A stretch of DNA of 64,000 bases from Gammaproteobacteria bacterium (lineage in GTDB: Bacteria; Pseudomonadota; Gammaproteobacteria; Arenicellales; Poriferihabitantaceae). Positions 5,806 to 48,448 of the stretch are shown in pieces. Below the pieces are notes generated by a model. It was not told where the DNA came from. It ran no database searches and saw nothing but the letters and a program-made list of their open reading frames with translations. Within the stretch, counting starts at the first letter, position 1; each line of letters begins with the position of its first letter. The stretch is taken from positions 2,214 to 66,213 of the forward strand of contig VYFG01000103.1 in NCBI GenBank assembly GCA_009842505.1. Reading direction: 5' to 3'. Both the position numbers and the translations under genes were made by a program.

Positions 5806-5857
5806 GACGGCCGTTGGGGCCCGCCTCGACTCGTACAACCCGGGCCAAGCGAAGATC

Positions 5858-9140
<3,283 letters not shown>

Positions 9141-30670: not shown

Positions 30671-32206
30671 TCAGGTCACAGTGAACTGGCCCATCATGCC
30701 CCGGTCCTCATGCTCCAGGATGTGGCAGTGGAACATGTAGGGAAATCGATCGGTCGCGGGATGATCGAAACGAACGACGATTTCCGCCCAGTCGTCGTCA
30801 TCCACTACCACCGTGTCCTTCCATCCTCGCTGGTCGGACGGCGCGGCATCCCCTTCCATCGCCTCGATCAGGAATGAACAGCCGTGCACGTGAAAGGGGT
30901 GTGCGCCCTGGTTGGACCGGATGCGCCAGCGTTCCCAGACACCGAGCTTCACCCGTTCGTTAATGACGCCCATGTCCATGGCCGCGCCGTTGATGTTCAT
31001 ATCCATCATGGCGTGACCTTCCTGTTTGCCATGACCGCCAGCATCGTCCTCCATGGTGAGCATGAAGTCGCGGGTGCGCACGATCTCGTTTTCCCTGGGG
31101 CGGGCAATCGCAACCATCCGTTCAGGTAATGGCGCAGTCTGTGCTGGCAGCGTTCCATCGACTTTCAGGGTCAACGATGCCTGTGGTACGGAGTCCGCGG
31201 TCCGGCCCAGCATGTCCAGCAGGCTTCTGAAGATACCTTCCATGCCATCAACGCCATCATCGCCATCATCGTCATCGTCATCGTCGTCATCATCGAATTC
31301 ATCCTCGAACAGGGTCAGCAGTTCGGCGGATTTTCCATTCGCCATGTCAACGATGATTTCGCACCGCTCTCCGGGCGCCATCTCCATCATGGTCAAGGGC
31401 ACCGGGGATTCCAGGAAGCCGCCGTCGCTGGCAATCTTGTAAAAGGTGCGACTGTCCGCAAAGCCAACCAGGTAAAAGCGGGCATTGGCGCCATTCAGCA
31501 GCCGCAGCCGTACCTTACCGGCCGGGACCGATGCGACCGGGTTGATCGCCCCGTTGATCACGACGGTCTCGCCAAGCCAGCCGTCTTCCCCCGCATCATT
31601 CAGTGAATAGACCAGCCGGCCCTGCGCATCGAAGGTCCGGTCCTGGATGATGACAGGCAGATCGTCAACGCCGTATTGCCGGGGGAGATCCATCGAATCG
31701 GAAACATCGTCATCAATGATGATCAAGCCGGCCAGGCCGTGATAGACCTGATGGCCGGTCCTGCCGTGCGTATGGGCGTGGTACCAGCATGTGGCCGCCG
31801 GCTGCACAATGGACAGGGCGGGCCTCCACCGGTCTCCTGGAGCGATTTCCCGCTGCGGCCCGCCGTCGACATCGCCGGGAACGTGCAGGCCGTGACCGTG
31901 AACGGCCACGCCTTCCGCCAGGGTGTTCCGGTACCGCAGGTTGAGTTCGCTGTTCTGCCGGGTCCGGATAGTTGGCCCCAGAAAATCCTGGTTAAACCCC
32001 AGGGTCGGCGTCCTGACACCCGGTTTGAACGACCATTCGCCACGGCGTATCCGCAGGTCAACCGGCGCCCCCCCGGTTCCGTCAACCAGTGCCGGTATCG
32101 GCAGGCCGGGAGGCATGGCCTTCGACCAGGCGGGATGAAAACAGCCGGCGCCCAGCAGGGCAGCGCTGCCGGCAAGAAACCGCCTCCGGGAAAACGTAAG
32201 AGACAT
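30671..32206 (-). CDS. multicopper oxidase (CueO-like), Tat-exported
   Basis: Tat signal SRRRFLAGSAALLGA and Cu-binding motifs HGHGLH, WYHAHTH, HPFHVHG and FHCHILEHEDRGMM. Confidence 0.9.
   Translation of the reverse strand: MSLTFSRRRFLAGSAALLGAGCFHPAWSKAMPPGLPIPALVDGTGGAPVDLRIRRGEWSFKPGVRTPTLGFNQDFLGPTIRTRQNSELNLRYRNTLAEGVAVHGHGLHVPGDVDGGPQREIAPGDRWRPALSIVQPAATCWYHAHTHGRTGHQVYHGLAGLIIIDDDVSDSMDLPRQYGVDDLPVIIQDRTFDAQGRLVYSLNDAGEDGWLGETVVINGAINPVASVPAGKVRLRLLNGANARFYLVGFADSRTFYKIASDGGFLESPVPLTMMEMAPGERCEIIVDMANGKSAELLTLFEDEFDDDDDDDDDDGDDGVDGMEGIFRSLLDMLGRTADSVPQASLTLKVDGTLPAQTAPLPERMVAIARPRENEIVRTRDFMLTMEDDAGGHGKQEGHAMMDMNINGAAMDMGVINERVKLGVWERWRIRSNQGAHPFHVHGCSFLIEAMEGDAAPSDQRGWKDTVVVDDDDWAEIVVRFDHPATDRFPYMFHCHILEHEDRGMMGQFTVT
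31265..31294 (-). repeat. uninterrupted run of 10 Asp codons (GAT/GAC) inside the multicopper oxidase, within a wider acidic segment EDEFD10GDDGVDG
   Basis: Read directly: the + strand atcatcgtcatcgtcatcgtcgtcatcatc is the reverse complement of 10 Asp codons. Confidence 0.95.
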
Positions 32207-32429: not shown

Positions 32430-32954
32430 ATGTCCGATGCGATAGAGAAAATACCCTACCGGCGAACGGTGTTTGCGGTTTTCGTGCTGTTCGTCTTCGG
32501 CACCAGCACGGCCGAAATTGTCGTCGAGTTCGCTGCCGGAGAGACGCTGGGTGCCATGGGGGATGACCTGTCCCGGCTCGCCCTCAGCGTCGTCATGCTG
32601 GCGCTGTTCCTATACGAGTACCTCGTGCAGCGCCGGGCGCTCGGTGAACTGCGCGGACAGCTCAACAAGGCTCGCGGACAGCTTGCCCGGCTCGACACCG
32701 GATCGAGGAACCTCGCCAGTCAGTACCGTGCCGTGATGCAAAAGCAGTTTGATGCCTGGCAGCTGACGGCGAGCGAGCAGGACGTGGTCATCGGGATGCT
32801 GAAGGGGCTGTCCTTCCGGGAGATCGCGGAACTGCGGGAAACGCGCGAGAAAACAGTGCGCCAACAGGCGTCCAGCGTCTACCAGAAAGCCGGGGTGAAC
32901 AGTCGAAACGAACTGGCCGCCTGGTTTTTCGAGGATATGCTGGAACCTCCATAA
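32430..32954 (+). CDS. membrane-anchored LuxR/FixJ-type HTH transcriptional regulator
   Basis: Two hydrophobic segments (TVFAVFVLFVFG, LALSVVMLALFLY), a coiled-coil-like linker and a C-terminal LuxR HTH LTASEQDVVIGMLKGLSFREIAELRETREKTVRQQASSVYQKAGV.SRNEL. Confidence 0.8.
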   Translation: MSDAIEKIPYRRTVFAVFVLFVFGTSTAEIVVEFAAGETLGAMGDDLSRLALSVVMLALFLYEYLVQRRALGELRGQLNKARGQLARLDTGSRNLASQYRAVMQKQFDAWQLTASEQDVVIGMLKGLSFREIAELRETREKTVRQQASSVYQKAGVNSRNELAAWFFEDMLEPP

Positions 32955-33061: not shown

Positions 33062-33090
33062 TTGTGACGAACATTTATGCCACCTATAAT
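33062..33090 (+). promoter_or_regulatory. near-consensus sigma70-type promoter TTGTGA-N17-TATAAT upstream of the MazG-like gene
   Basis: TTGTGA at 33062-33067 and TATAAT at 33085-33090, 28 nt before ATG 33118. Confidence 0.5.
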
Positions 33091-33117
33091 CCATCGCAAA
33101 ATTGCCGGCCCGCCACC

Positions 33118-33435
33118 ATGGATCTCGAGAACATCCAGCAGCGCCTGAGGGAGTTTGCACGTGAACGTGATTGGGAGCAGTTCCACTCACCCAAGAACCT
33201 GTCCATGGCGCTGTCCGTGGAAGTCGCGGAGCTCGTCGAGCACTTCCAATGGCTGACTGAACCGCAATCCTCATCCGCCCAGGCAGTGGACCGGGAAGAA
33301 GTGGCCACCGAAATCGCGGACATCCAGATTTTCCTGATCATGCTTGCCGACAAGCTCGGCGTGGATATTGAACAGGCCGTGCACGCGAAGATCGAAGCAA
33401 ACGCGATCAAGTACCCGCCAACAGTTGTCTCGTAA
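33118..33435 (+). CDS. MazG-like nucleotide pyrophosphohydrolase (small all-alpha NTP-PPase)
   Basis: LREFARERDWEQFHSPKNLSMALSVEVAELVEHFQW...EEVATEIADIQIFLIMLADKLGVD matches the small MazG/YpjD-type family, including acidic EXXE-type helices. I chose ATG 33118 because track start 33064 overlaps the promoter. Confidence 0.82.
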   Translation: MDLENIQQRLREFARERDWEQFHSPKNLSMALSVEVAELVEHFQWLTEPQSSSAQAVDREEVATEIADIQIFLIMLADKLGVDIEQAVHAKIEANAIKYPPTVVS

Positions 33436-33456
33436 TCACGCTGGTTTCCTGAGCTC

Positions 33457-35331
33457 GTGATCGTCTACTCCGCGACCCGGAGAGAATTCTCCGACGACGT
33501 AAGATCCAACCGGATCGAGGAACGGATCCTCGACAGATTCCTGTCACGGCTGGGCCACAGGCCATCCGCCTCCGAGATACATTCCTGGCGGAACTCCCTG
33601 CAGCAGATGCACAATGCGCTGGACATCGGGGAGATTCCGGATGACGCAGGCGTGGCGATCGAATACCGCATCCCCCTCACCTCCAGGCGGGTTGACTTCA
33701 TGCTGTCCGGCATCGACTCGAATGATCGCGACTCGGTCATCATCGTCGAGCTGAAGCAATGGTCCGATGTCGAAAAGACCGGGAAGGACGCAATCGTCAG
33801 GACATGGCTCGGAGGGTCGCTCCGGGAAGTCACGCATCCGTCATACCAGGCTTGGACCTACGCGGCACTGATCCAGGACTTCAATGTCGAGATCCAGGAC
33901 AGCAACATCTCGCTGCGGCCCTGCGCCTATCTCCACAATTGCACCGATCCAATCGTGATCAGGTCGGACTTCTATCGCGAACACCTGTGCCGTGCTCCCG
34001 TGTTCCTGAGGAATGATGTCGAGGACCTGGCAGCCTTCCTGAAGAAGTTCGTACGGAAGGGAGACCGGTCCGGGATTCTCTACAGGATCGAGGGCGGCCG
34101 CCTCAGACCATCCAAGAACCTCGCGGACCACCTTGCATCCCTGCTGGACGGCAACCGCGAGTTCACAATGATCGATCACCAGAAGATCGTCTACGAGACC
34201 GCCCTGGACCTCATGAAGCGAGTGGAGGACTCCGGGAAGCAGGTCCTGCTGGTGGAAGGGGGCCCCGGAACAGGCAAGTCGGTCGTGGCGGTGAACCTCC
34301 TGGTCGAGCTCACGACTAGAGGACTTGTGACCCACTACGTGTCGCGCAATGCAGCGCCAAGGGCGGTTTACGAGAGCAGGCTTTCCGGAACGCTTTCCAA
34401 GACGCGAATCACCAACCTGTTCAAGGGTTCCGGCGCGTATGTTGACTGCGAGCCCGGAACCATCGATTGCCTGATCGTGGACGAGGCGCACCGGCTCAAT
34501 GAAAAGTCAGGCTTCTATCAGAACCAGGGGGATAACCAGATCAGGGAGATCATTCGTGCGGCCGGGCTTTCCATCTTCTTTCTGGACCAGGATCAGCGGG
34601 TCACGTTGAAGGACATTGGCGAGCGGTCTGAAATCAGGCGCCATGCGGCGGCGGCCGGGGCCTGCCTGACCGAACTCCAGTTGCTGTCCCAATTCCGGTG
34701 CAACGGTTCGGACGGCTACCTTTCGTGGGTCAACAGCGCTCTTCAGATCGAGGAAACAGCGAACCCGACCCTGGATGGGATCGACTTTGACTTTCGGGTC
34801 TTCGATTCGCCAAACGAAATGAGGGACGAAATCGTCCGGCTGAACCGGGACAGGAACAAGTCACGCATGGTGGCCGGCTATTGCTGGGACTGGGAGAGCA
34901 AGAAAAATCCCGGGGTCATGGATGTCGCCATCCCCGAACACGGGTTCGAGATGCGATGGAACCTCGATTCGGACGGTTCCCTTTGGATCATCCAGGACGA
35001 CAGTGTGAAGGAAATTGGCTGCATCCATACCTGCCAGGGCCTTGAACTGGATTACGTGGGCGTGATTTTCGGAGAAGATTTCATTGTCCGGAACGGAAAG
35101 GTTGAAACGGACGCTCGCAGGCGGTCGAAGAATGACAGTTCGGTTCGCGGCTACAAGAAGATGCTCCGGGAGAACCCGGCTAAAGCCAAGGCGTTGGCCG
35201 ACCGGGTCATCAAGAACACCTACCGCACTCTGATGACCAGGGGACAGAAGGGTTGCTTCCTGTTCTGTGTGGACCAGGAGACAAACGAGTACTTCCGGAA
35301 TTTCGTAGAGGAAAAACACGGAAACCGGTAG
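33457..35331 (+). CDS. DUF2075 protein: N-terminal PD-(D/E)xK-like module plus P-loop/DEAH helicase-like ATPase (Schlafen group-3-like helicase domain)
   Basis: RRVDFML...VIIVELKQW (D80, E98, K100), Walker A GGPGTGKS (nt 34258-34281), DEAH (nt 34480-34491), QFRCNGS, YCWDW, HTCQGLELDYVGVI and YRTLMTRG. GTG 33457 is the only available start. It shares the MazG frame, 7 codons after the MazG TAA. Confidence 0.85.
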   Translation: MIVYSATRREFSDDVRSNRIEERILDRFLSRLGHRPSASEIHSWRNSLQQMHNALDIGEIPDDAGVAIEYRIPLTSRRVDFMLSGIDSNDRDSVIIVELKQWSDVEKTGKDAIVRTWLGGSLREVTHPSYQAWTYAALIQDFNVEIQDSNISLRPCAYLHNCTDPIVIRSDFYREHLCRAPVFLRNDVEDLAAFLKKFVRKGDRSGILYRIEGGRLRPSKNLADHLASLLDGNREFTMIDHQKIVYETALDLMKRVEDSGKQVLLVEGGPGTGKSVVAVNLLVELTTRGLVTHYVSRNAAPRAVYESRLSGTLSKTRITNLFKGSGAYVDCEPGTIDCLIVDEAHRLNEKSGFYQNQGDNQIREIIRAAGLSIFFLDQDQRVTLKDIGERSEIRRHAAAAGACLTELQLLSQFRCNGSDGYLSWVNSALQIEETANPTLDGIDFDFRVFDSPNEMRDEIVRLNRDRNKSRMVAGYCWDWESKKNPGVMDVAIPEHGFEMRWNLDSDGSLWIIQDDSVKEIGCIHTCQGLELDYVGVIFGEDFIVRNGKVETDARRRSKNDSSVRGYKKMLRENPAKAKALADRVIKNTYRTLMTRGQKGCFLFCVDQETNEYFRNFVEEKHGNR

Positions 35332-35583
35332 CGTCCAAATGTCATAGACCCAAGAAACTGACCTGCCACCCTGCGAATCCTGAATTCATCGATGTCCTCT
35401 GCGTTCCCGCACCAACACCGGAATATTCGCGCCGATAATCCGTGATTGGCATGTCGAAGCCACGCAACTGAAGAGTGCATGACAGGTCCACCAACTGGAC
35501 TTCGACCTCCCCGTCCAGTACGCTGGAACGCTCGCGACTGCCCCGTATTCCCTCCACCAAGATTTAAGGTATTGAGGACACCC

Positions 35584-35946
35584 ATGGATAACGCAGCCAT
35601 GAACCACTACACGCCTGACTACACGATCACTCCCGGTGAGGTGTTGGGCCACGAGCTCGAGCAGCGCAACATGAGTCGAACCGAACTGGCCAAGCGCACG
35701 GGCTTAAGCGATAAGCAAATTATTGCCATCCTCAAGGGCAAGGGCAAGGGCAAGGGCAAGGGCAAGGGCAAGGGCAAAGTCATTATCACGCTTGAAACCG
35801 CCATCAAGCTGGAGCGTGCTCTGGGTATGCCAGTCGAGTACTGGCTCAATCTGGAGGTCCACTACCAGAAGACCCGCGCTCGGCTGGCCGAAGAGGTCAA
35901 ACTGGAAAATGACCTCCCTTGGGAACGACCTTCTGTTTCATTGTGA
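35584..35946 (+). CDS. higA: HigA-family (XRE HTH) antitoxin-like protein with an internal (Gly-Lys)7 repeat
   Basis: ITPGEVLGHELEQRNMSRTELAKRTGLSDKQIIAILKGK...VIITLETAIKLERALGMPVEYWLNLE matches the HigA antidote family. A GAGGA Shine-Dalgarno lies 6 nt upstream of ATG 35584. Confidence 0.8.
   Translation: MDNAAMNHYTPDYTITPGEVLGHELEQRNMSRTELAKRTGLSDKQIIAILKGKGKGKGKGKGKGKVIITLETAIKLERALGMPVEYWLNLEVHYQKTRARLAEEVKLENDLPWERPSVSL
35737..35778 (+). repeat. hexanucleotide tandem repeat: GGCAAG x6 plus GGCAAA
   Basis: Read directly from the sequence. It is in frame and encodes GKGKGKGKGKGKGK inside the HigA HTH region. Confidence 0.97.
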
Positions 35947-35966
35947 ATTTCGGTGCCTTGATTTCG

Positions 35967-36806
35967 TCAGTTTGCCACAGCAGCTATCTGTATGTCCCTT
36001 TTGTGCCTGGACTCCTGCTTTTTCATGGCGACCATGGCCAGGACAACCCCGGTGGCAACGATTGCAATGATGATGGTTGCAAGTGCGTTCACATCCGGAC
36101 TGACTCCAAGTTTGACCTTGGAAAAAATGACCATGGGCAATGTGCTTGAGCCCGGTCCTGAGACGAAGCTTGCAATTACCAGGTCGTCGATTGACAGAGT
36201 AAACGCCAGCAGCCAACCGGAAACCAGGGCCGGGGCCACGATCGGAAGCGTCACTGCAAAAAACACCGTGACGGGCCGCGCCCCCAGGTCCATCGCCGCT
36301 TCTTCCAGTGAGGGGTCCATATCCGACAGTCGAGACTGAACCACCACCGCAACATATGCCATGGAGAATGTGATGTGGGCGATGGTGATGGTGGTGATGC
36401 CGCGGCCGCCCGGCCAACCGACCAGGTCCTGCAAGGCTATGAAAAACAGCAGTAGTGACAGGCCTGTTATTACTTCCGGCATAACCAATGGAGCGGTGGT
36501 CATTCCTGAAAACAGCATCCTGCCCCTGAAGCGCTTCATACGGGCAAGTACAAATCCTGCCAGCATTCCGAAAGCCACCGCAAAACAGGCACTGACAACG
36601 GCAATTCTCAGGCTCAGAAGGGCGGCCTCGATGATTTGTTCGTTTCGAAAGAGCTCGCCGTACCATTTGGTGGAAAATCCTCCCCAAACAGTGACCAGTT
36701 TTGATTTGTTGAATGAAAAGACAATCAGCGAGACGATCGGGATATACAGGAATGCATAGCCAAACGCCATCATCGTCAGGATAAAGTTGAATCGCTTGTT
36801 GAACAT
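35967..36806 (-). CDS. potI: polyamine ABC transporter permease (PotI/PotC-like)
   Basis: MFNKRFNFILTMMAFGYAFLYIPI..L...SFN and the EAA loop EEAAMDLGARP. ATG 36806 abuts the potH stop. Confidence 0.88.
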   Translation of the reverse strand: MFNKRFNFILTMMAFGYAFLYIPIVSLIVFSFNKSKLVTVWGGFSTKWYGELFRNEQIIEAALLSLRIAVVSACFAVAFGMLAGFVLARMKRFRGRMLFSGMTTAPLVMPEVITGLSLLLFFIALQDLVGWPGGRGITTITIAHITFSMAYVAVVVQSRLSDMDPSLEEAAMDLGARPVTVFFAVTLPIVAPALVSGWLLAFTLSIDDLVIASFVSGPGSSTLPMVIFSKVKLGVSPDVNALATIIIAIVATGVVLAMVAMKKQESRHKRDIQIAAVAN

Positions 36807-37792
36807 CAGCTCGCCTCCGACTGTTTGTTCTGGAAATACTGGAAAAACATGATGGGTACTACCAGGAACAAAAGCATCGCAATGGCAACGGCTGACGCCA
36901 AAGGCCAATCGCGGTTATTGAAGAACTCGTCCCACAACACCCGGCCAATCATCAATGTGTCGGGTCCGCCAAGCAGGGCGGGGATTACGAATTCCCCGAC
37001 TGCCGGAATAAACACCAGCATGGATCCCGCGACGATTCCAGGAATCGATAGTGGAAGAGTCACAACGAAAAATGCCTTGATCGGCTTGCAACCCAGGTCG
37101 GAAGCGGCTTCCAGCAGTGTCCCGTCCAGTTTCTCCAGGTTTGCGTAGAGCGGCAGGATCATGAATGGGAGATAGGAATAGATAATGCCAAGGTAGACGG
37201 CAAAATCCGTCTGCATCATCACGATCGGCTCATCAATGATTCCCAGGCCCATCAGAATGTTGTTGAACAGGCCATTGTTTTTCAGAAGCCCGATCCAGGC
37301 ATAAACCCTGAGCAGGAAGGAAGTCCAGAACGGCAGGATGATCAGCATCAGCAGGATATTGCGATTCGCGGGACTGGCCCTCGCAATTCCATAGGCCATG
37401 GGATAGCCGATCAACAGACAGAAGAAAGTCGATATCAGCGCGATCTTTGCCGAGTTGACGTAGGAAAACCAGTAAAGGTCGTCTTCCAGCAGAAACAGGA
37501 AGTTCCCGAAATTCAGGTGCAGGGAAATCAGCCCTTCCTCACCCCACTCGATCAGGTCCGAGTAGGGGGGTATGGCGAGAATCGACTCGGACAGGGATAT
37601 TTTCAGCACGAATGCAAAGGGGATCAAAAAGAAGATCCCCAGCCAGAAAAACGGGATGGAGATCACCCCGGTTCTCCCGGTGATGCCGAGTGCGCCGAAA
37701 ATCGAAACAACGAATCTGCCTACCACAGAATTCGCGAACGGCTCCAGGACGCTGGTGAGCCGTTTCCCCAGGGGGAGATATCCGGCCCTCAT
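36806..37792 (-). CDS. potH: polyamine ABC transporter permease (PotH/PotB-like)
   Basis: Polytopic protein with LLEAASDLGCKPIKAFF (EAA motif). Its ATG overlaps the potG stop (ATGA). Confidence 0.88.
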   Translation of the reverse strand: MRAGYLPLGKRLTSVLEPFANSVVGRFVVSIFGALGITGRTGVISIPFFWLGIFFLIPFAFVLKISLSESILAIPPYSDLIEWGEEGLISLHLNFGNFLFLLEDDLYWFSYVNSAKIALISTFFCLLIGYPMAYGIARASPANRNILLMLIILPFWTSFLLRVYAWIGLLKNNGLFNNILMGLGIIDEPIVMMQTDFAVYLGIIYSYLPFMILPLYANLEKLDGTLLEAASDLGCKPIKAFFVVTLPLSIPGIVAGSMLVFIPAVGEFVIPALLGGPDTLMIGRVLWDEFFNNRDWPLASAVAIAMLLFLVVPIMFFQYFQNKQSEAS

Positions 37793-38928
37793 GACAGCAG
37801 CACCAGCCCGCTCTTGGGCTTCCAGCTGACATACACCTGCTCATCCCAATCGAATTGCTCAGTGTCCCGGTCAAGATTGGGCAACGTGGCCTTGACGATC
37901 TTTCCGCTTTTCAATCGAACCCGGTAAACGGAAAGATTCCCCATGTAGGCAACTTCGTCGATTATCCCTTCCGCGACGTTGTCGGCCTGGTCCGGCCTGT
38001 TTCGGGTCAATTTCATTTTTTCCGGGCGGACAGCGACACCGACGCGGGACCCCTCGGTGACAGCGACTCCATGGTCAATGTACAAGGTAGCGTCCGTATC
38101 CTCCGACTGGATTCGCACGTGATCCGCCTCATCTTCAACGACGTTGCCGTCGAATAGATTGATTGATCCTATGAAGTCCGCCACGTACCGGGTTCCCGGG
38201 TACTCGTAGATTTCATTGGGCGTTCCGACCTGGACGATTTTTCCGGAATCCATGATGCCGATACGCGAAGAAAGGGTCATGGCCTCTTCCTGGTCATGAG
38301 TGACCACCACGAAGGTAATGCCCAGTTCCTCCTGCAGATTCATCAGTTCAAACTGCGTGTTCTCCCGCAGTTTCTTGTCGAGCGCGCCGAGCGGTTCGTC
38401 AAGCAGGAGCAGCTTCGGCTGCTTGATCAAGGAACGTGCGAGAGCGACCCGCTGGCGCTGGCCGCCGGAAAGCTGGTGAGGTTTTCGTTTTGCGAAGTCC
38501 TCAAGCTTCACGAGCTCGAGCATGTCCGCAACCCGTTTCCTGATTTCCCCCTTGTGCATGCCATCCTGATGCAAGCCAAAGGCAACGTTCTTCTCGATGG
38601 TCATATGCGGAAACAGGGCATAGGACTGGAACATCATGTTCACCGGACGGTCATAGGGATAGATGCCGGCCATGTCCTGACCATCGAGCAGAATCCTTCC
38701 GGAAGTCGGATTTTCAAATCCTGCCAGCATTCGAAGAAGAGTGGACTTGCCGCAGCCGGACCCGCCCAACAGACAAAACAGCTCGTTCTTGTAGATCTTC
38801 AGGGAAACGTTGTCCACAGCGGTAAAGTCGCCGAATTTCTTGGTTATGTTTTCTATGCTGATGTAGGGATCGGCATATGGATCGTTCCATGGTGATTTCG
38901 ATTTATCCTTGGTGTTATCAGATGCCAT
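37789..38928 (-). CDS. potG: putrescine/spermidine ABC transporter ATP-binding protein
   Basis: Walker A GGSGCGKST, LSGGQRQRVALAR, Walker B LLLDEP and a C-terminal TOBE-like region. Confidence 0.92.
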   Translation of the reverse strand: MASDNTKDKSKSPWNDPYADPYISIENITKKFGDFTAVDNVSLKIYKNELFCLLGGSGCGKSTLLRMLAGFENPTSGRILLDGQDMAGIYPYDRPVNMMFQSYALFPHMTIEKNVAFGLHQDGMHKGEIRKRVADMLELVKLEDFAKRKPHQLSGGQRQRVALARSLIKQPKLLLLDEPLGALDKKLRENTQFELMNLQEELGITFVVVTHDQEEAMTLSSRIGIMDSGKIVQVGTPNEIYEYPGTRYVADFIGSINLFDGNVVEDEADHVRIQSEDTDATLYIDHGVAVTEGSRVGVAVRPEKMKLTRNRPDQADNVAEGIIDEVAYMGNLSVYRVRLKSGKIVKATLPNLDRDTEQFDWDEQVYVSWKPKSGLVLLS

Positions 38929-38952
38929 CTTCTTTATCCTCCAGGGAAAGTG

Positions 38953-38984
38953 GGCAGGGATCCTGAAGCATCAGGATCCCTGCC
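38953..38984 (-). promoter_or_regulatory. perfect 14-bp stem / 4-nt loop hairpin between potF and potG
   Basis: GGCAGGGATCCTGA-agca-TCAGGATCCCTGCC read directly. It begins 13 nt after the potF stop and has no U-tract. Confidence 0.5.
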
Positions 38985-38996
38985 GGTTGACTGGGA

Positions 38997-40085
38997 TCAC
39001 TGACCGGTCTTGATCGCCGTCCACGCGCGAGTCAGTCGTCGTGTGAACCTGTGGTCATCCGCCAAGTCCGGGAACAGGTTTGCCTTGACCTCGTCCGAAG
39101 GATAGATGGCAGGATCGTTTTTCACTTCGTCGAGCACATGGGGCAGCGATGCGCTGTTTGCATTCGCATAGAACACGTAATTGGTGATGGCGGCCGCGAC
39201 TTCCGGTTCCAGGATATAGTCGATGAACAGGTGCGCATTTTCCGGGTGAGGCGCATCCGCGGGAATGGCCAGGTTGTCAAACCACATGACTGAGCCTTCC
39301 CTGGGAATGACATAGTCGATTTCCACGCCCTGACCCGCCTCGGCGGCGCGGTCCCTGGCAATCAGCATGTCCCCGCTCCAGCCCATGGCTACACATACTT
39401 CACCGTTCGCCAGGTCATTGATGTTCTGTGACGAATGGAAGTACTTGATGAAGGGCCGGACTTTCAGCATGTGTTCCTTGAATGCTTCCACGTCAGACCT
39501 TTCATTGCTCAGCGGGTCCTTCCCGAGGTAGGCCATCACGATTCCGAACACTTCCGTAGGCGCATCCAGAACTGTAATGCCGCATCCGGCAAATTTCTCG
39601 GCGGTCGCAGGATCAAGGATCATGTCCCAGCTGTCCACTGGAGCATCCGCCATTACGTCTGCAACCTTGTTGATGTTGTAGCCGAATCCGGTGGTTCCCC
39701 ACATGTACGTCACGGCATGGGCGTTGTCCGGATCATGCGCCGCCATCCGTTCAAGGATGCCCGTATCCAGGTTGCCGTAGTTGCTGAGTTTGCCCTTGTC
39801 CAGCGGTGCGAAGACGCCAGCCTGGATCTGCCTTTCCAGAAAAGGCGCCGAAGGCACAACCACATCGTATCCGCTGCTGCCTGCGATCAGCTTTGCTTCC
39901 AGTATTTCGTTGGAGTCGAATACATCGTAGTTCACCTTGATTCCGGTACGGGATTCGAAGTTTGAAATGGTGTCTTCCGCAATGTAGTCAGACCAGTTGT
40001 AAACGTTCAGGACTTTTTCTTCCTGGGCGTCGGCACCGGTAACGAATGCCAGGGCGGTCGCCGTGTATAAAAGTTTTTTGTACAT
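38997..40085 (-). CDS. potF: periplasmic putrescine/spermidine-binding protein
   Basis: Signal peptide MYKKLLYTATALAFVTGADA, then LNVYNWSDYIAEDT...FE..TGIKV.YDVFDSNE, which is typical of PotF/SpuD. Confidence 0.9.
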   Translation of the reverse strand: MYKKLLYTATALAFVTGADAQEEKVLNVYNWSDYIAEDTISNFESRTGIKVNYDVFDSNEILEAKLIAGSSGYDVVVPSAPFLERQIQAGVFAPLDKGKLSNYGNLDTGILERMAAHDPDNAHAVTYMWGTTGFGYNINKVADVMADAPVDSWDMILDPATAEKFAGCGITVLDAPTEVFGIVMAYLGKDPLSNERSDVEAFKEHMLKVRPFIKYFHSSQNINDLANGEVCVAMGWSGDMLIARDRAAEAGQGVEIDYVIPREGSVMWFDNLAIPADAPHPENAHLFIDYILEPEVAAAITNYVFYANANSASLPHVLDEVKNDPAIYPSDEVKANLFPDLADDHRFTRRLTRAWTAIKTGQ

Positions 40086-40156
40086 TTGGGTTTCCTCTAC
40101 AGGTTCAGGGTTGATACCGCTTTGGCCATTTCAGCCAAAGTGCGAATTCATTTGCT

Positions 40157-40450
40157 TCAGTACCTTTCCATGGCTGGTGAATCTTGAAAGATGATTCGGG
40201 ATGTGCCGCCCGGCGCCTCTGAAAAACCAGGGATCCAGTCATGTTCCTCATGGACGCCGAATCCCGATCCGGTCACAAGCCGTCCATCCGCATGGCACGT
40301 ATCCTGGGGAAAGTCGCCGTCAAGTACCGCCCGGGTCTCGAGCCCGAAGCCGCCATCCTTCAGGAATCCCCCGAAGAAGTCGTCATGATGCCCGTGTTCG
40401 TCCCGCGGCTTGCCTGGTGATTTGCCGGTTTGCAAGATCCCGATTCTCAT
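40157..40450 (-). pseudogene. truncated class I glutamine amidotransferase (N-terminal ~85 aa only)
   Basis: MRIGILQTGKSPGKPRDEHGHHDDFF..FLKDGGFGLETRAVLDGDFPQ....ADGRLVTGSGFGVHEEHDWIP matches the N-terminus of COG0518-type GATases (normally about 240 aa). The nucleophile-Cys region is absent, and only 72 nt remain before potF. Confidence 0.65.
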
Positions 40451-40497
40451 TGCTGGAAAATTCTCTGTAAGGCGGTTCATAAGCATCCGGATCGGTT

Positions 40498-41808
40498 CTA
40501 GACGCCCAGGGAATCACGCATGGCATACCACCACGATCCGATCATGCAGTACTGCTCCCGGAACCTGCGCCCTCCCGGGAACGGGAACCAGCGCACTTTC
40601 GAGAACACATCGAACCGACGGGTATCCCCGTCGATCGCTTCCGACAGAATCCGGCCGAAAACGTGGGAAGCGGTGACCCCATGTCCGCTGTAGCCATGGG
40701 CAAAATAGGTGTTTGGTCCCAGGCGTCCCATCTGGGGTACCCGGGAAAATGACAGGGCAAAGTTGCCGCTCCAGGCGTAGTCGATCCTCACGCCCGCAAG
40801 GCCCGGAAAAATCTTCTCCATGTTGGGGCGAAGTTTTGATCTGATATCCGAAGGGTCGGTGCCGCCGTAAACGGTTCCGCCACCGAAAAGCAACCGCTTG
40901 TCCGCGGAAAGCCGGTAGTAATCGAGTACATAGCGGGTATCTTCGACACACAGGTCCGTGGGCAGCAGTTCACTGGCCCGGTCCGCCCCCAAAGGCTCCG
41001 TTGCAATCATCTGGGTGGATACCGGCATGATCCTGGGTGTCAACGGGCGCACTACCTTTCCGAGATATGCATTGCCGCAGATCACCAGCTTCCTGCATCG
41101 CACCTCGCCTTCGGCAGTGGTGATTCCGGGATTGTCGCCCTCGCAATTCACGGAAGTCACGGGAGACAATTCGTATATTTCCCCCCCGTTCCTTTCAACG
41201 GCGGCCGCTTCTCCCAGGCTCAGATTGAGCGGATGCATATGCCCGCCTGAGTGATCTATCATGCCGCCGATGTAGACATCCGTACCGACGTGCCGGCGGA
41301 TTTCTTCCCTGCCCAGGAGTTCGTGATCATCCATACCGTATTTGCGCCACAGTTCCTGCTTCGCCTCCAGTTCGCGCATTTGTCTGGCATTGAATACGGC
41401 GAACAGGTTCCCGGATTTGAGATCGCATTCAATCCCGTACTTCCGGACAGTTTCACGAATGATCTCGCCGCCTTCCTGTACCATGCCTCCAACGAATCCA
41501 CCGAATTCAGGGCCGTAACGCTTCTCGATGGTATGAAGGCTGGCATTGAGTCCGTTGACGATTTGCCCACCGTTGCGGCCTGAAGCCCCCCATCCCACAC
41601 GGGCGCCTTCAACAACGACGACGCTGTATCCTTTTTCAGCGAGGTGCAATGCCGTGGACAGACCGCTGTATCCGGCCCCCACAACACATACGTCCGTCTC
41701 CACGACTCCGGAAAGTGATCGTCGGGTCGGCGTCAGATTGGCCGAGGCGACGTAGTAGCTGGCAGGATAACTGCCGTCACCGGCATAACCGTTGACTCTT
41801 GATTCCAT
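40498..41808 (-). CDS. FAD-dependent oxidoreductase (gamma-glutamylputrescine oxidase PuuB-like)
   Basis: DVCVVGAGYSGLSTAL dinucleotide-binding motif, DAO-family length, and position next to the GS-like gene. Confidence 0.8.
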   Translation of the reverse strand: MESRVNGYAGDGSYPASYYVASANLTPTRRSLSGVVETDVCVVGAGYSGLSTALHLAEKGYSVVVVEGARVGWGASGRNGGQIVNGLNASLHTIEKRYGPEFGGFVGGMVQEGGEIIRETVRKYGIECDLKSGNLFAVFNARQMRELEAKQELWRKYGMDDHELLGREEIRRHVGTDVYIGGMIDHSGGHMHPLNLSLGEAAAVERNGGEIYELSPVTSVNCEGDNPGITTAEGEVRCRKLVICGNAYLGKVVRPLTPRIMPVSTQMIATEPLGADRASELLPTDLCVEDTRYVLDYYRLSADKRLLFGGGTVYGGTDPSDIRSKLRPNMEKIFPGLAGVRIDYAWSGNFALSFSRVPQMGRLGPNTYFAHGYSGHGVTASHVFGRILSEAIDGDTRRFDVFSKVRWFPFPGGRRFREQYCMIGSWWYAMRDSLGV

Positions 41809-43157
41809 CAGACGGTCTCCAGATAGCTGTGATACTCAAAATCCGTAACCCGACCGGTGAACACCTTGAGCTCCTGCCGTTTACAGGAGGCCAGCATTTT
41901 TCTCAGAACCGGTGAAAAGATCCGTTCCATGTACCGGCCTTGTTCGAACGCCTCGATTGCCGAGGCCCAATCGAAAGGCAGGTATTTCGTGGTCTGCGTG
42001 TAGGCATTGCCGACGACCGGTTCGGTCGGCTGAACCTGTTGCTCGATTCCTTCGGCTGCCGCGCCCAGCACACCGGCCAATACCAGATAAGGATTGGCAT
42101 CGGCACCGGCCACACGGTGTTCGATACGCCGAGCCGAATACGAGCCGCCGGGGATCCGTATGGCCGCGGTCCGGTTTTCGTAACCCCAAGAAACCCCGGT
42201 GGGAGCAAGCGAGCCCGGCTGCAGACGCCGATAGGAATTGAGATGCGGTGCAAACAGCAAGGTCGATTCGGTCATTGCTCCGAGCAGACCACCCACCGCA
42301 TGACGCAATGTGACGGATCCCAGATCGGTGCCATCGTTGAAAACGTTGTTGCCGTTTTCATCGAGCAGGCTGAAGTGAACGTGCATGCTGTTGCCTGCGC
42401 GATCGCCATAGGGTTTCGCCATGAAACTTGCGGCAAATCCGTGTTTTCGGGCGATTCCCTTGACGAGTCTCTTGAAAAGCACGGCGTCATCAGCGGCTTT
42501 CAACGGATCGTCTGCATGGAGTAGATTCAGTTCGAACTGGCCTGCACCGTTTTCAGCAATGGCTGCATCTGCCGGAATGTTTTGTGCAGTGCAGGCTGCA
42601 TAAACATCGTTGATAAAGGCTTCAAACTGGTCCAGCTCGTCAATGGAGAGAACACCGTCTCCATCCAGACGCCTGCCCGTGATCGGGGATTTCGGGGGCA
42701 TCGGAGGATTCGCATTCGGATCCACCAGATAGAACTCCAATTCCGTTGCCACCACCGCCGTCAGCCCCAACGCCGAGAACCGCTCAACGACCGCAGCCAG
42801 TGCCCGGCGGGAATCGCCCGGAAAAACGGAACCGTCTTCCTGGCGCAACCAGAGCGGAATCAGGGCAGTGGGCTTGGCCAACCAGTCCACTGGCGAGATT
42901 TCCCGGCCTGTCCATTCGCAGATTCCGTCCGCATCCCCTGTCTCAAAATCCGATTCACCGTCGGCAATATCCTCTCCCCAGATATCGACACGACTTACGG
43001 ACAAGGGCATGCGCAGATGACCCTCCAGTGCCTTTTTGGCCTGGTGTATGGGGACACTCTTGCCTCGCATGTTTCCATTGAGATCGCATACGGCCACCCG
43101 CAGGCTTTGGATTTCCGGATGCTTCCGGAGCCACTCCAGCATTTCAGTGACGGCCAT
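41808..43157 (-). CDS. glutamine synthetase family protein (gamma-glutamylpolyamine synthetase PuuA/PauA-like)
   Basis: GS catalytic-domain motifs (FMAKPY....GNSMHVHFSL, NRTAAIRIP, R.E.R..GADANPYL). Confidence 0.85.
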   Translation of the reverse strand: MAVTEMLEWLRKHPEIQSLRVAVCDLNGNMRGKSVPIHQAKKALEGHLRMPLSVSRVDIWGEDIADGESDFETGDADGICEWTGREISPVDWLAKPTALIPLWLRQEDGSVFPGDSRRALAAVVERFSALGLTAVVATELEFYLVDPNANPPMPPKSPITGRRLDGDGVLSIDELDQFEAFINDVYAACTAQNIPADAAIAENGAGQFELNLLHADDPLKAADDAVLFKRLVKGIARKHGFAASFMAKPYGDRAGNSMHVHFSLLDENGNNVFNDGTDLGSVTLRHAVGGLLGAMTESTLLFAPHLNSYRRLQPGSLAPTGVSWGYENRTAAIRIPGGSYSARRIEHRVAGADANPYLVLAGVLGAAAEGIEQQVQPTEPVVGNAYTQTTKYLPFDWASAIEAFEQGRYMERIFSPVLRKMLASCKRQELKVFTGRVTDFEYHSYLETV

Positions 43158-43240
43158 GGAAATTCTGTCCCAAAGTTATTTTTGATAGCTATTTCCTGTT
43201 TTATATCATAATATATATTTTGTGATCAAATAATTTATTT

Positions 43241-43268
43241 TGTATCATTTTTGGATAAAATTGATACA
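43241..43268. promoter_or_regulatory. inverted repeat TGTATCA-N14-TGATACA in the AT-rich puuA/gntR divergent intergenic region (candidate GntR-type operator)
   Basis: Arms at 43241-43247 and 43262-43268, read directly. A GT...AC core is typical of FadR/GntR operators. Confidence 0.35.
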
Positions 43269-43317
43269 TTGTTTTGCAAACAAGCAGAACCCAGCCGACA
43301 TAACCTATTGATAATTA

Positions 43318-44019
43318 ATGGATAATTCCATTTTCCTTCCGGATATCCCTCTCTCGGACTTCGAAACCACGCAGAACTATGCGTATCTCCGCCTGCGGAA
43401 TGCCTTGATGGTGGGCGCCATCAGTCCCGGCATTGCCATCACGATCCAGGATATTTCGGAGTCACTGGAGGTGAGTGCGACCCCGGTTCGTGAAGCCCTG
43501 CGCCAGCTTTGCTCCGAGAACGCCCTGCAGTCGCTGAAAAACCGTCGAATCATGGTGCCCGTCATGACACCGGCAAGGTTAGAGGAACTCATTTCCCTGA
43601 GGTGCGCATTGGAGATGTACGCCGCGAAACGTGCGCTGCCTTACATCAACAATATGGAGATCGACAACCTGGAGCGGATAGACAACCAGCTGGACCAGGC
43701 CCAAAGCGAAGAAAACTGGAGTGAAATGGTTCTGTTGAACCAGCGCTTTCACTCGGGTCTGTACGTGGCCAATCCCAACCAGGTGGTCATGCCGATGATA
43801 GAAAGCATCTGGCTGCAACTGGGGCCGTTCATGGGTGTGGCCGCAAAGTACCAACAGGAGTTCTATATTGTCGACCACCATAAGGAAGCGATCGCGGCAC
43901 TGCGCCAGAACGATCCGGTCATACTGGAATCGGCGATAGAAGCGGATATCCGCGATGGTGTCGGTCAACTGAATCCGGAGAAGTTGCAAAGCATTCTTCT
44001 GGAGCGGCAGACAAAGTAA
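43318..44019 (+). CDS. GntR-family transcriptional regulator (FCD/FadR-like C-terminal domain)
   Basis: wHTH region YAYLRLRNALMVGAISPG..I.IQDISESLEVSATPVREALRQL and a helical FCD-like C-terminus. Confidence 0.82.
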   Translation: MDNSIFLPDIPLSDFETTQNYAYLRLRNALMVGAISPGIAITIQDISESLEVSATPVREALRQLCSENALQSLKNRRIMVPVMTPARLEELISLRCALEMYAAKRALPYINNMEIDNLERIDNQLDQAQSEENWSEMVLLNQRFHSGLYVANPNQVVMPMIESIWLQLGPFMGVAAKYQQEFYIVDHHKEAIAALRQNDPVILESAIEADIRDGVGQLNPEKLQSILLERQTK

Positions 44020-44104
44020 AAGAGGCCACGGTCGCGGCAGGAGCGGCGGATTTTGCCACCCCGTAAATGTACAGAGAGGTGCCCGTGCGCCGGGGGGGCA
44101 CTCC

Positions 44105-44149
44105 TTGACAGGCGCTTCGACTTTTGATAAAAAAACAAACATCTGTTTG
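44105..44149 (+). promoter_or_regulatory. candidate promoter TTGACA-N17-TAAAAA with an adjacent 14-bp palindrome CAAACAtcTGTTTG (candidate TetR operator)
   Basis: TTGACA at 44105-44110, TAAAAA at 44128-44133 and the palindrome at 44136-44149, directly upstream of the TetR gene start (44166). Confidence 0.45.
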
Positions 44150-44165
44150 GTTAAAAAAATAATCG

Positions 44166-44750
44166 ATGGTCACTCCCGTACGCCGCGCCAACAACCGCAA
44201 CGACCGACTGCTCGACGAGGCGGCGCGGCTGTTCGCCGCCCAGGGCTACCGCGAGACGACCATGCGGGACATCGCCGCGGCGGCCGGCATGCTGCCCGGT
44301 TCCATCTACTATCACCACCCGTCCAAAACCGAGCTACTGGTCGCCGTCTACGAGAAGGGCGTCGAGGGCCTGTGCCAGCGGTTCGACGCCGCGGTCGCCG
44401 GTGTTGCCGACCCGTGGGAACGGCTGGGGAAGGCCCTGGACGTTCACCTGGAGACGGTGCTCGACCAGAGCGACTACGCGCGGGTCATGGTCCGGGTGCT
44501 GCCCGAGCACCTGCCCGGGTCAGCCCAGGAACTTGCCCGGCTCCGTGACGGTTACGAGGACCGCATCGCCGGACTCATCGATGCACTGCCCCTCAACGGG
44601 GGGATCGATCCGAAGATGCTGCGGTTCCTGATTCTCGGCGCCGCCAACTGGGCACAGACCTGGTACCGACCGGGCATGACGAGCCCCGCTGAGGTGGCGC
44701 GGCAGTTCCTGCTCATCGTGCAGCGGCCCATGGAGGGGAGCGTTGGCTGA
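44166..44750 (+). CDS. TetR/AcrR-family transcriptional regulator
   Basis: N-terminal HTH LLDEAARLFAAQGYRETTMRDIAAAAGMLPGSIYYHHPSK. Confidence 0.88.
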   Translation: MVTPVRRANNRNDRLLDEAARLFAAQGYRETTMRDIAAAAGMLPGSIYYHHPSKTELLVAVYEKGVEGLCQRFDAAVAGVADPWERLGKALDVHLETVLDQSDYARVMVRVLPEHLPGSAQELARLRDGYEDRIAGLIDALPLNGGIDPKMLRFLILGAANWAQTWYRPGMTSPAEVARQFLLIVQRPMEGSVG

Positions 44751-45180
44751 GACCCGGACATCACCCGCGCGGGTGCTGGTCACCAAGATCGGCCTCGACG
44801 GCCATGACCGCGGCAGCCGCATCGTCGCCGCGTATCTCCGCGACGCCGGCATGGACGTGATCTACACGCCGCCGTGGCAGACCATCGATGCCGTCGTCGC
44901 CCAGGCGTTGCAGGAGGACGTTGACGTCGTCGGGCTGAGCTCCCTGGCCACCGACCACCTGATCGTGCCCGACCTGATCGCAGCCCTGCGCAAGGCCGGG
45001 CTGGAGCACGTCGGTGTCGTCGTCGGCGGGATCGTTCCCGAAGACGAGCACGGCATGCTCACCGGGGCCGGGGTTGCCGGCATCTTCGGCCCCGGCGCGC
45101 GCCGCAATGACATCATCGACGCCGTTGCCGCGTTGGCCGCCAAGGCCCGGACGGCCCGGCTCGAAACCCTGGGGATATAG
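44743..45180 (+). CDS. cobalamin-binding small subunit of an acyl-CoA mutase
   Basis: B12-binding DxHxxG motif (GLDGHDRGS) and a Rossmann-like SSL...H region. The start codon is uncertain (TTG 44743 or GTG 44773). Confidence 0.85.
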   Translation: MAETRTSPARVLVTKIGLDGHDRGSRIVAAYLRDAGMDVIYTPPWQTIDAVVAQALQEDVDVVGLSSLATDHLIVPDLIAALRKAGLEHVGVVVGGIVPEDEHGMLTGAGVAGIFGPGARRNDIIDAVAALAAKARTARLETLGI

Positions 45181-45183
45181 ACC

Positions 45184-46872: not shown

Positions 46873-47876
46873 TGCCGGACACCACCCCCCGCACGGTGCC
46901 CCGTCAGCGACTGATCGACCGGCTCCGGGCCGGCGAACCGGCGGCGCTGGCGCGGGCCCTCACCCTGACCGAGACAGGCGGTGCAGACGCCCAGACGCTC
47001 CTGCGCCAGATCCACGGGGACCAGCACGGAGACCCCGCACGTCATGCCGTCGTCGTCGGGTTCACCGGCCCGCCCGGCGTCGGCAAGTCGACCCTGATCA
47101 GCGCCTACGTCCGCACGCTCCGTGGCGAGGGTCGCACCGTCGCCGTCCTTGCCGTCGATCCCACCAGCCCGAAAAGCGGCGGCGCCATTCTCGGCGACCG
47201 CGCGCGCATGGGCGAACATGCCGTCGATCAAGGCGTGTTCATCCGCTCGCTGGCGGCGCGCAGCCACCTGGGCGGGCTGACGCTCAACATCCATGCGCTG
47301 GTCGACGTGGTCGCCGCCGCCGGCTGGGACGTTATCGTCCTGGAGACCGTCGGCACCGGCCAGTCGGAGATAGAGGTTGCCAACGTCGCCGACGTCACCG
47401 TGGTGATCAACGCCCCCGGTCTCGGCGATGAGGTGCAAGCGCTGAAGGCCGGCATCCTGGAGATCGCCGACGTACTGGTGGTCAACAAGGCCGACCTGCC
47501 GGGTGCCGCGCGGACCGAGCAGCAACTGGGCACAATGCTCCACCTCCGCCCCGACGACGCCCCCGAGATCCCTGTCATCCCCACCGTGGCCGCCGAAGGT
47601 GAAGGACTCGACCCCCTGACCACCGCCATCGACTCCCGCGCCGCCACCATCACCCCGGCCGGGCGCGCCCGGCGCGCCCGATCCCACGCCGTCGACCTCA
47701 TTGCCGAAGCCGCCGGCCGCCGCGTCCGCGAGCGGTTCCGGGGACCCGAGGCCGCCGCTCTTGATGCCCTTAGCCGCCGCCTCCTTGCCGGCGAGATCAA
47801 TGCCGACGAAGCGGCAAGGCTGGCATTGCTTTCCCAACCTGCGGGCAGCCCGCTGCCACCGGATATCCCAAAGTAG
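46872..47876 (+). CDS. meaB: methylmalonyl-CoA mutase-associated GTPase (MeaB/ArgK family)
   Basis: P-loop GFTGPPGVGKSTLI, ETVGTGQSE and VVNKADL (NKxD). Its start overlaps the mutase stop. Confidence 0.9.
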   Translation: MPDTTPRTVPRQRLIDRLRAGEPAALARALTLTETGGADAQTLLRQIHGDQHGDPARHAVVVGFTGPPGVGKSTLISAYVRTLRGEGRTVAVLAVDPTSPKSGGAILGDRARMGEHAVDQGVFIRSLAARSHLGGLTLNIHALVDVVAAAGWDVIVLETVGTGQSEIEVANVADVTVVINAPGLGDEVQALKAGILEIADVLVVNKADLPGAARTEQQLGTMLHLRPDDAPEIPVIPTVAAEGEGLDPLTTAIDSRAATITPAGRARRARSHAVDLIAEAAGRRVRERFRGPEAAALDALSRRLLAGEINADEAARLALLSQPAGSPLPPDIPK

Positions 47877-47929
47877 GCCCGCCCACCAGAAACACCACTC
47901 CTTGGAGTACGGATCGCAGGGATGTTCCT

Positions 47930-48435: not shown

Positions 48436-48448
48436 CGATATTTTCCTG

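Follow-up and report, generated by a model that had tools for sequence, protein, structure and literature searches.

A MazG-like pyrophosphohydrolase gene paired with a Nhi-like nuclease-helicase gene: a putative defence module of bacteria and archaea

In a 64,000-nucleotide stretch of DNA from a gammaproteobacterium (assembly GCA_009842505.1, contig VYFG01000103.1; the whole stretch is hereafter called the window), a short gene for a MazG-like nucleotide pyrophosphohydrolase directly precedes a long gene for a DUF2075 protein. Do these two genes form a unit, and if so, what would such a unit do? An initial annotation, made from the letters alone, had seen in them a candidate undescribed defence-type module. 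We find that the pair is inherited together across many phyla, and that its conserved MazG partner is the undescribed part, the nuclease-helicase being of a known kind. We assign a probability of about 0.55 to the reading that this is an accessory, horizontally moving module of two genes, the job of which is defence against phage or other invading DNA.

The two genes and their products

Both genes are on the forward strand. The first is an ATG open reading frame (ORF) of 105 codons at 33118-33435, and the second, in the same frame, is a GTG ORF of 624 codons at 33457-35331. The 21-nt spacer between them (33436-33456, + strand) has no terminator-like site, which is consistent with co-transcription of MazG and DUF2075.

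The 105-residue product is a DCTPP1-type, all-alpha NTP pyrophosphohydrolase. It matches the Pfam family PF12643 (MazG-like) at E=2.5e-13 and 50.5 bits (cut-off 27), and it is close to the DCTPP1/RS21-C6 structures 6sqw, 2a3q, 7mu5 and 2oie (E about 1e-20), the match to 6sqw/2a3q covering the whole protein length at E=5e-21 and about 40-45% identity. The dimeric dUTPases and the phage enzyme MazZ are more distant. Its EXXE...EXXD metal ligands (E35, E38, E65 and D68) align with those of DCTPP1, which we take to be numbered E63, E66, E95 and D98 in the mouse enzyme. Because these four ligands, together with W19, W45 and Y99, are invariant in 45 MazG homologs adjoining a DUF2075 gene, the window-type MazG appears to be an enzyme kept under purifying selection. 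It is a clear homolog of mammalian dCTP pyrophosphatase 1 (DCTPP1, or RS21-C6), from which it differs in being prokaryotic, in its length of 105 residues without the eukaryotic extensions, and in its genetic coupling to a nuclease-helicase.

The 624-residue product is matched by PF09848 (DUF2075, now 'SLFN-g3_helicase') over the full profile (positions 1-354 of 354, E=3e-104, 349 bits) along residues 261-606 (34237-35274, + strand). This helicase core of the DUF2075/SLFN-group-3 type, within superfamily 1B (SF1B), contains the Walker A motif GGPGTGKS (34258-34281), the DEAH box, or Walker B (34480-34491), a motif V-like sequence, CIHTCQGLELDYVGV (35020-35064), and a motif VI-like sequence, YRTLMTRGQKG (35221-35253). 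In an alignment of 25 homologs with 63-89% identity, the Walker A and DEAH motifs are invariant, as are QFRC, CQGLELDYVGV and TLMTRG and, nearer the N-terminus, D80 and the ExK motif. AlphaFold models of the full-length protein and of its N-terminal part were searched with Foldseek against the Protein Data Bank (PDB). For the core, they returned SLFN11 (7zel, E=2.5e-10), RecD2 (3gpl), SLFN14 and Dda (3upu), with E-values from 2.5e-10 to 9e-6, and the predicted fold of the core is that of an SF1B helicase. These matches have low TM-scores (0.27-0.30), owing to the several domains of the model and its moderate confidence (pLDDT, the predicted local distance difference test, is 72.5). The C-terminal (group 3) helicase of human SLFN11 and SLFN14 is hence of the same Pfam family and provides the best structural matches; the window protein, however, lacks the N-terminal Schlafen RNase domain, and it is this RNase domain, not the helicase domain, that published work on bacterial Schlafen defence concerns.

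A putative PD-(D/E)xK-like nuclease module occupies residues 1-215 (33457-34101, + strand), as judged from conserved motifs and predicted fold order. Its candidate catalytic residues, E69, D80 (33694-33696), E98-L-K100 (33748-33756) and Q131xxxY135 (33847-33861), do not vary among 28 homologs from bacteria and archaea. D80 and E98/K100 lie on predicted strands (residues 78-86 and 92-100), a helix (128-146) follows, and the whole is predicted in an alpha-beta-beta-beta-(hairpin)-alpha-beta order with a pLDDT mostly of 75-93. This motif and strand order is the pattern of RecB/NERD-type PD-(D/E)xK nucleases, for which the module is a candidate on the strength of its motifs. The standard Pfam scan gave no family match in the first 250 residues; a relaxed scan of the 28 members gave sub-threshold matches to NERD in 7 of the 28 (best E=0.004), to DUF2726 in 3, and to Tox-REase-9 and SfsA, all of them families with a restriction-endonuclease fold. 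The best fold match was a weak one, to 1xmx (VC1899; E=6e-3, probability 0.72). Profile comparison by hhalign with a NERD protein aligned the ExK segment only, without significance, and the comparison with HSDR_N neighbours did not confirm the fold.

Most of what the initial annotation had said of the two genes is borne out. The ORFs, their starts and the 21-nt in-frame gap are as given, the positions of D80, E98-L-K100, GGPGTGKS and DEAH are exact to the nucleotide, the QFRC, CQGLELDYVGV and TLMTRG motifs are present, the MazG-like call is confirmed by a PF12643 match above the cut-off with all four metal ligands intact, and that of DUF2075 (Schlafen group-3-like) by the full-profile match to PF09848. 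The operon reading is supported by the short gap and by a gene order kept across phyla. The PD-(D/E)xK signature stands as regards its residues, which are present and invariant; the similarity of fold to a known member was not established.

Distribution, co-inheritance and carriage of the pair

Relatives of the 624-residue protein were sought in one genome per species, over 185,579 species, and about 400 places were found to encode one. The locus analysis was made on the best 80 of these approximately 400 relatives (58-88% identity, at least 10 phyla), and the individual loci are designated below by L numbers. Of the 77 loci with room upstream, 51 have a MazG gene immediately before the DUF2075 gene and in the same orientation; they belong to the Gammaproteobacteria, Verrucomicrobiota, Kiritimatiellia, Desulfobacterota, Acidobacteriota, Chloroflexota, Nitrospirota, Myxococcota and Spirochaetota, among other groups. 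The gap between the two genes is 24-90 nt in these relatives, with a 4-nt stop/start overlap in about 15 loci. In three more loci the arrangement is decayed, by an IS30-type transposase inserted between MazG and DUF2075 (L045, positions 4967-5935 of that locus) or with only remnants of MazG left (L043 and L066). As MazG-like genes number at most a few per genome, adjacency by chance would be expected at far below one in 77, and, shadow ORFs aside, every other gene family is confined to 7 loci at most.

The association was also examined in the reverse direction, with seven MazG homologs (66-78% identical to that of the window) on longer contigs, chosen regardless of DUF2075. The DUF2075 gene was downstream in four and upstream in one, a decayed remnant of it was downstream in another, and the last MazG was an orphan, so that DUF2075 sequence adjoins six of the seven. 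The pairwise distances of the two proteins co-vary (Mantel r=0.63, a value reached in 0 of 999 permutations), and parsimony on the DUF2075 tree places MazG at the root, as the ancestral state, with some 16 scattered changes that are mostly losses. Since adjacency, the reverse test and the co-variation of distances agree, we conclude that the pair moves and evolves as a unit, of which MazG is a dispensable member. Co-occurrence and conserved gene order, on which the initial annotation had made its reading depend, thus hold across many phyla. MazG is missing in L003 and L004, the DUF2075 proteins of which are close to that of the window (75% identity); in the MazG-less loci the small upstream ORFs gave no Pfam match, save small HSDR_N proteins in L043 and L069, and no consistent substitute was seen. 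Two unusual arrangements may be mentioned: the gene order DUF2075-MazG-DUF2075-NERD in L094 (4285-9395), and an inverted order, with the DUF2075 gene upstream of MazG, in L089 (4149-6327).

The window protein is a short form. Among the relatives, 44 of 76 exceed 720 residues, most of them having about 790-825, and the last 170 or so residues of these long forms are a Peptidase_S24 domain of the LexA/UmuD-like type, which is absent from the window protein. Such S24-bearing proteins are encoded in L025, L031, L033-L036, L038, L039, L042-L047, L049-L059, L062-L065, L067-L076 and L078-L080. An alignment of 36 relatives of 780-830 residues shows in this domain a conserved candidate cleavage site (AAG), a serine motif (GESMNRRI) and, further downstream, a Lys, and the conservation of AAG, GESM and Lys suggests RecA*-triggered autocleavage.

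The pair is also carried by plasmids, in Bacillota, Bacteroidota, cyanobacteria and one haloarchaeon; examples are plasmid 1 of the archaeon Halalkalicoccus jeotgali and a 25-kb Marivirga plasmid. On a Priestia aryabhattai plasmid (L095, 2548-5866), DUF3578, MazG and DUF2075 form an apparent operon, in which DUF3578, which we take to be a McrB-type N-terminal DNA-binding domain, overlaps the start of MazG by 4 nt; the operon is flanked by a restriction endonuclease gene, a MutT gene and a type I restriction-modification system.

The genes surrounding the pair are mostly unrelated from one locus to the next: among the two nearest genes on each side, 123 Pfam families are represented in 133 upstream genes and 114 in 128 downstream genes. 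Those neighbours that do recur are HNH_2 (15 genes), ResIII (7), Mrr_cat (6), SoFic-type Fic (6), HSDR_N (4), PLD-ResIII-DUF3427 proteins (3), NERD and HipA, and the PADLOC models matched by neighbours at E<1e-10 are those of HNH, type IV and type I restriction endonucleases, PbeA, SoFic, AbiEi, PD-T4-6 and NsnA. A recurrent neighbour of the restriction or toxin type lies within 6 kb in at least 23 of 76 loci (about 30%, as a raw count). On the enrichment near known defence genes, which the initial annotation had made a test of its reading, there is this raw count, and in the window itself no defence gene is near the pair. One locus, L090, is a dense defence island, with HNH_2, the pair, Metallophos, DUF4062, HNH, and Beta_protein with a HTH-M78 protein. 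DUF3427 proteins are neighbours of the pair family in L023, L062 and L066, and Lutz et al. have described DUF2075 NTPases beside DUF3427 modification-dependent endonucleases. A Metallophos gene (calcineurin-like phosphoesterase, about 247 residues) lies directly downstream of the pair in L005, L018, L030, L090 and L093, and may be an occasional third component of it.

Relation to known systems and proposed function

Two anti-phage proteins, Nhi (Bari et al.) and Nhi-like (Millman et al.), each combine in a single polypeptide an N-terminal PD-(D/E)xK nuclease with a DUF2075 helicase. From sequence comparison, the window protein appears to be a distant branch of the Nhi-like kind and not an ortholog. 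We used the verified Nhi-like sequence of the Millman supplement, of which 399 residues are available, and a full-length copy, 97% identical to it, from a B. cereus plasmid. Against this full-length ortholog, the family profile aligned in hhalign with 94.9% probability (E=4.2e-8, 496 columns, 24% identity), from residue 38 to 604 of the window family and from 39 to 587 of the Nhi-like protein, with the D, ExK, QxxxY, Walker A, DEAH/DEAQ (Walker B), QGLELD and TRG motifs in register; against the 399-residue sequence the values were 86.6% and E=4.4e-6. As a BLASTP bridge through the Priestia homolog aligned only the helicase motifs, the link to Nhi-like rests on the profile comparison. The initial annotation had noted a likeness to Nhi-type nuclease-helicases, which this collinear match supports, but it overstated the novelty of the nuclease-DUF2075 half, a distant homolog of the verified Nhi-like protein whose family PF09848 is already on a list of defence Pfams. 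It was right that there is no named MazG + DUF2075 system: PADLOC-DB v2 contains none, and the searchable literature gives no description of the pair or of a system defined by it. Table S17 of Millman, given as IMG gene IDs, lists Achromobacter and Hymenobacter, and because the same genus or related taxa hold window-type relatives (L025 in Bordetella and L031 in Advenella, both Alcaligenaceae, and the Hymenobacter plasmids H2 and H4), the window subfamily may already have been counted there.

The Nhi-like protein of Bacillus cereus FSL H8-0482 (Millman et al. 2022) and the window family share a nuclease and a DUF2075 SF1 helicase that are collinear over some 500 residues, and both occur on plasmids, the Nhi-like copy in Bacillus being plasmid-borne. 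Nhi-like, however, works as a single gene and has no MazG at its B. cereus locus, whereas the window branch, at about 24% identity, has MazG in about two-thirds of its loci and a C-terminal S24 domain in half of the relatives. Nhi of Staphylococcus epidermidis (SERP2475; Bari et al. 2022) has the same architecture of nuclease and DUF2075 helicase, but a different C-terminal domain and no MazG partner. Immunity by Nhi requires both the nuclease and the helicase activity and limits the accumulation of phage DNA, and one Nhi homolog is toxic on expression (bioRxiv 10.1101/776245). Phages escape Nhi-like when their own DNA methylase is lost or inactivated, so that methylated DNA sensitises them, and this implies that targeting depends on modification (bioRxiv 10.1101/2022.08.27.505566).

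The nucleotide-depletion defences (dCTP deaminase, dGTPase, PUA-Calcineurin-HAD) also place an enzyme acting on deoxynucleoside triphosphates (dNTPs) in a conflict-type locus, and the Metallophos genes that recur downstream of window-type pairs in several loci are a further point of likeness. For PUA-HAD conflict systems, MazG-like enzymes have been predicted to take the place of the calcineurin-like effector and to target NTPs (bioRxiv 10.64898/2026.01.15.699771). The enzyme families and partners are nevertheless different: PUA and HAD are absent here, as is any dCTP deaminase or HD-type dGTPase effector, none of the PADLOC models of depletion systems matches the window pair, and the dNTPase has a nuclease-helicase as its partner and is dispensed with in about one-third of the loci. 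What could be shared is only the general logic of a dNTP-consuming enzyme.

The defence reading is drawn from the homology of the large protein to a verified Nhi-like protein, the intact catalytic motifs, the co-inheritance of the pair, its patchy spread across domains, its carriage by plasmids and the restriction- and toxin-type genes often near it. The 624-residue protein would be the effector, an ATP-driven SF1B helicase with an N-terminal PD-(D/E)xK-type nuclease, which would translocate on foreign DNA, probably replicating and/or base-modified, and degrade it; base-modified DNA is suggested as a target by the analogy with Nhi-like and by the type IV restriction neighbours. Its MazG partner would convert (d)NTPs to (d)NMP and PPi, presumably with a preference, by analogy with DCTPP1, for dCTP and 5-modified dCTPs. 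In its most likely role it would clear such nucleotides, so that modified ones, of phage manufacture or recovered from broken-down phage DNA, are neither re-used by the phage nor incorporated into host DNA, which they would expose to the nuclease; a second possibility is that MazG simply lowers the dCTP pool. Tentatively, and with the odds against it in this full form, we propose a two-component immunity in which the nuclease-helicase hits modified or replicating phage DNA and MazG cleanses modified nucleotides of the dCTP type. The phage would thus be starved, modified bases would be kept from the host chromosome and self-attack by the nuclease would be avoided, while in the long-form relatives the S24 domain would serve as a further switch, cleaved in response to RecA*.

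Several of our results weigh against defence as the function. The nuclease fold was left unconfirmed by the fold and profile searches, in which phmmer and profile searches of PDB sequences with the N-terminal module found no match. The PADLOC models match the protein in part only: Nhi along residues 253-397 (E=2.7e-9), AbiO along residues 235-416 (E=1.8e-10), and PDC-S41 with its best stretch at residues 524-604 (E=3e-15). MazG is absent from about one-third of the related loci and is therefore not essential for the helicase protein. The identity between phyla, 58-77%, and to archaea, 44-52%, is unusually high for a defence gene. The frequency of defence neighbours has no matched background control, and in the window and its two relatives the pair is syntenic among metabolic genes, with no defence gene nearby. 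It is by sequence and analogy that we infer a defence function for the MazG/DUF2075 family, as well as the substrate preference, the division of labour and a physical complex of the two proteins.

The S24 domain and the SOS-response-associated peptidase (SRAP) genes, which recur among the neighbours in L031, L044 and L050, are links to the SOS response that would fit a role in DNA damage equally well. On this, the main rival reading, the pair might be an accessory module for DNA damage or replication stress, in which the nuclease-helicase processes stalled or damaged DNA and MazG cleans up non-canonical dNTPs. SLFN11 acts at stressed forks and DCTPP1 is a house-cleaning enzyme, and the clear homology to the latter, the S24 domain of the LexA/UmuD type in about half of the relatives, the two occurrences of UvrB among the neighbour genes, the high sequence conservation and the stable metabolic context in the window lineage all speak for such a role. 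We nevertheless hold it to be unlikely, given that the family is rare and patchy (some 400 places in 185,579 species genomes) and present on plasmids, that restriction, toxin and Abi genes outnumber repair genes around it, and that its large protein is homologous to a verified anti-phage protein; the sensing of RecA*, moreover, is also compatible with the sensing of phage replication.

An addiction pair of the toxin-antitoxin kind, in which MazG restrains a toxic nuclease-helicase, for instance by hydrolysing a nucleotide cofactor or activator, and which stabilises the element that carries it, would account for the operon with the small gene first and its 4-nt overlaps, for carriage by plasmids, for the HipA and Fic toxin genes recurring nearby, and for the toxicity of one Nhi homolog. 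An essential antitoxin, however, fits poorly with an intact DUF2075 gene kept without MazG in about one-third of the loci, L003 and L004 included, and with the existence of orphan MazG genes and of decayed DUF2075 remnants, and the full catalytic site in every MazG points to an enzyme, not a mere binder; this explanation is quite improbable in our view. Least credible of all, to the point of being nearly dismissed, is that the genes adjoin by chance, or that they are a phage-derived cassette with which a virus takes over its host or counters its defences. Phages do often carry MazG-like genes, and the pair is present in one record deposited as a phage, but the two genes keep their adjacency and order and co-vary across phyla and domains, and a scan of 2.9 million viral contigs of IMG/VR found zero relatives. 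The record in question (L082, PP438423.1, 'Microcystis phage Mwe-JY31', 22 kb) encodes, beside the pair, a Rep3 initiator, ParA, a TraG/TrwB-like coupling protein and a TPR protein; with these plasmid-like genes, and no recognisable virion genes among those scanned, it looks like a plasmid and not a virus, and with the empty IMG/VR scan we reject a phage origin of the pair.

If defence is indeed its function, the pair would add to the Nhi/Nhi-like class a widespread two-gene branch, found in many bacterial phyla, some archaea and plasmids, and would be the first genetic context to dedicate a house-cleaning pyrophosphatase of the DCTPP1 type to a DNA-targeting effector. This would open the question of how modification-dependent nucleases escape self-damage from salvaged modified nucleotides. 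A single prokaryotic operon would link two human proteins, through the SLFN group-3 helicase domain and DCTPP1, as another immune or genome-guarding module common to prokaryotes and animals, and the S24-bearing relatives would point to a defence helicase that is switched on through RecA.

The pair in its own locus

The candidate promoter of the pair is a sigma-70-like site at 33062-33090 on the forward strand, made up of TTGTGA (33062-33067), a 17-nt spacer and TATAAT (33085-33090), with 10 of 12 hexamer positions matching and its 3' end 27 nt ahead of the MazG start codon. One site of the TTGTGA-17-TATAAT kind is within chance, shuffles of the region yielding 1.4 +/- 1.3. The two closest relatives (L001 and L002) keep the hexamers unchanged, whereas their spacer and upstream DNA have diverged, and this conservation lends modest support to the putative promoter. 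The "strong promoter" of the initial annotation is thus present as a site, its single match not being significant by the shuffles.

The same two relatives clarify the context. L002, the complete chromosome of a Candidatus Poriferihabitaceae metagenome-assembled genome, and L001 are collinear with the window from 27.6 to 35.44 kb at 84-91% nucleotide identity, a stretch that comprises a decarboxylase, a multicopper oxidase, a LuxR-type gene, MazG and DUF2075. L002 resumes at 48.7 kb of the window, and L001 has another downstream context, so that the junction, about 100 nt past the DUF2075 stop codon, is variable. The intervening 13-kb block (35441-48716), absent from L002, contains a HigA-like gene, genes for putrescine ABC uptake (35967-40085) and catabolism, a DAO oxidase, a glutamine-synthetase-like gene, GntR and TetR regulators, and methylmalonyl-CoA mutase with MeaB; its GC content is 0.50-0.58 in the left part and 0.66-0.69 in the right part, and neither an integrase nor a tRNA, nor repeats at its flanks or ends, could be found. 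The GC content of the pair is 0.58-0.59, as compared with 0.65-0.69 in the core flanks, and its divergence in this lineage matches that of the neighbour genes. The pair is thus vertically stable in the window lineage, and the low-GC DNA next to it is an indel of metabolic genes, distinct from the pair. The initial annotation was wrong to give the pair its own low-GC island: the pair lies in conserved synteny with the multicopper oxidase and the LuxR-type gene, and the low GC, from 35.44 to about 44 kb, is that of the indel. This context gives no additional support for defence.

The XRE/HigA-like regulator reported beside the pair is there (35584-35946, + strand), as part of the indel and not of the module; neither this gene nor the LuxR-type gene accompanies the pair beyond the three closest genomes, and we rejected both as module parts. 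In the HigA-like protein, HTH_3 of Pfam matches residues 25-54 and the HigA model residues 65-97, and an in-frame (CAAGGG)n hexanucleotide array (35733-35780), coding for (GK)n, splits the helix-turn-helix. There is no HigB-like ORF upstream, and this may be an orphan antitoxin gene that is decaying or varies in length. In the intergenic DNA where the indel ends on the right, the palindrome ATTTACTGTACAGTAAAT occurs twice (48449-48466 and 48502-48519), 53 nt apart, and is probably a regulator-binding site. On the other side of the pair, the multicopper oxidase gene (30671-32206, - strand) and a gene for a membrane-anchored protein of the LuxR/GerE type (32430-32954) are conserved upstream in L001 and L002, and a stretch of acidic residues (DDDDDDDDDGDDG) lies within the oxidase.

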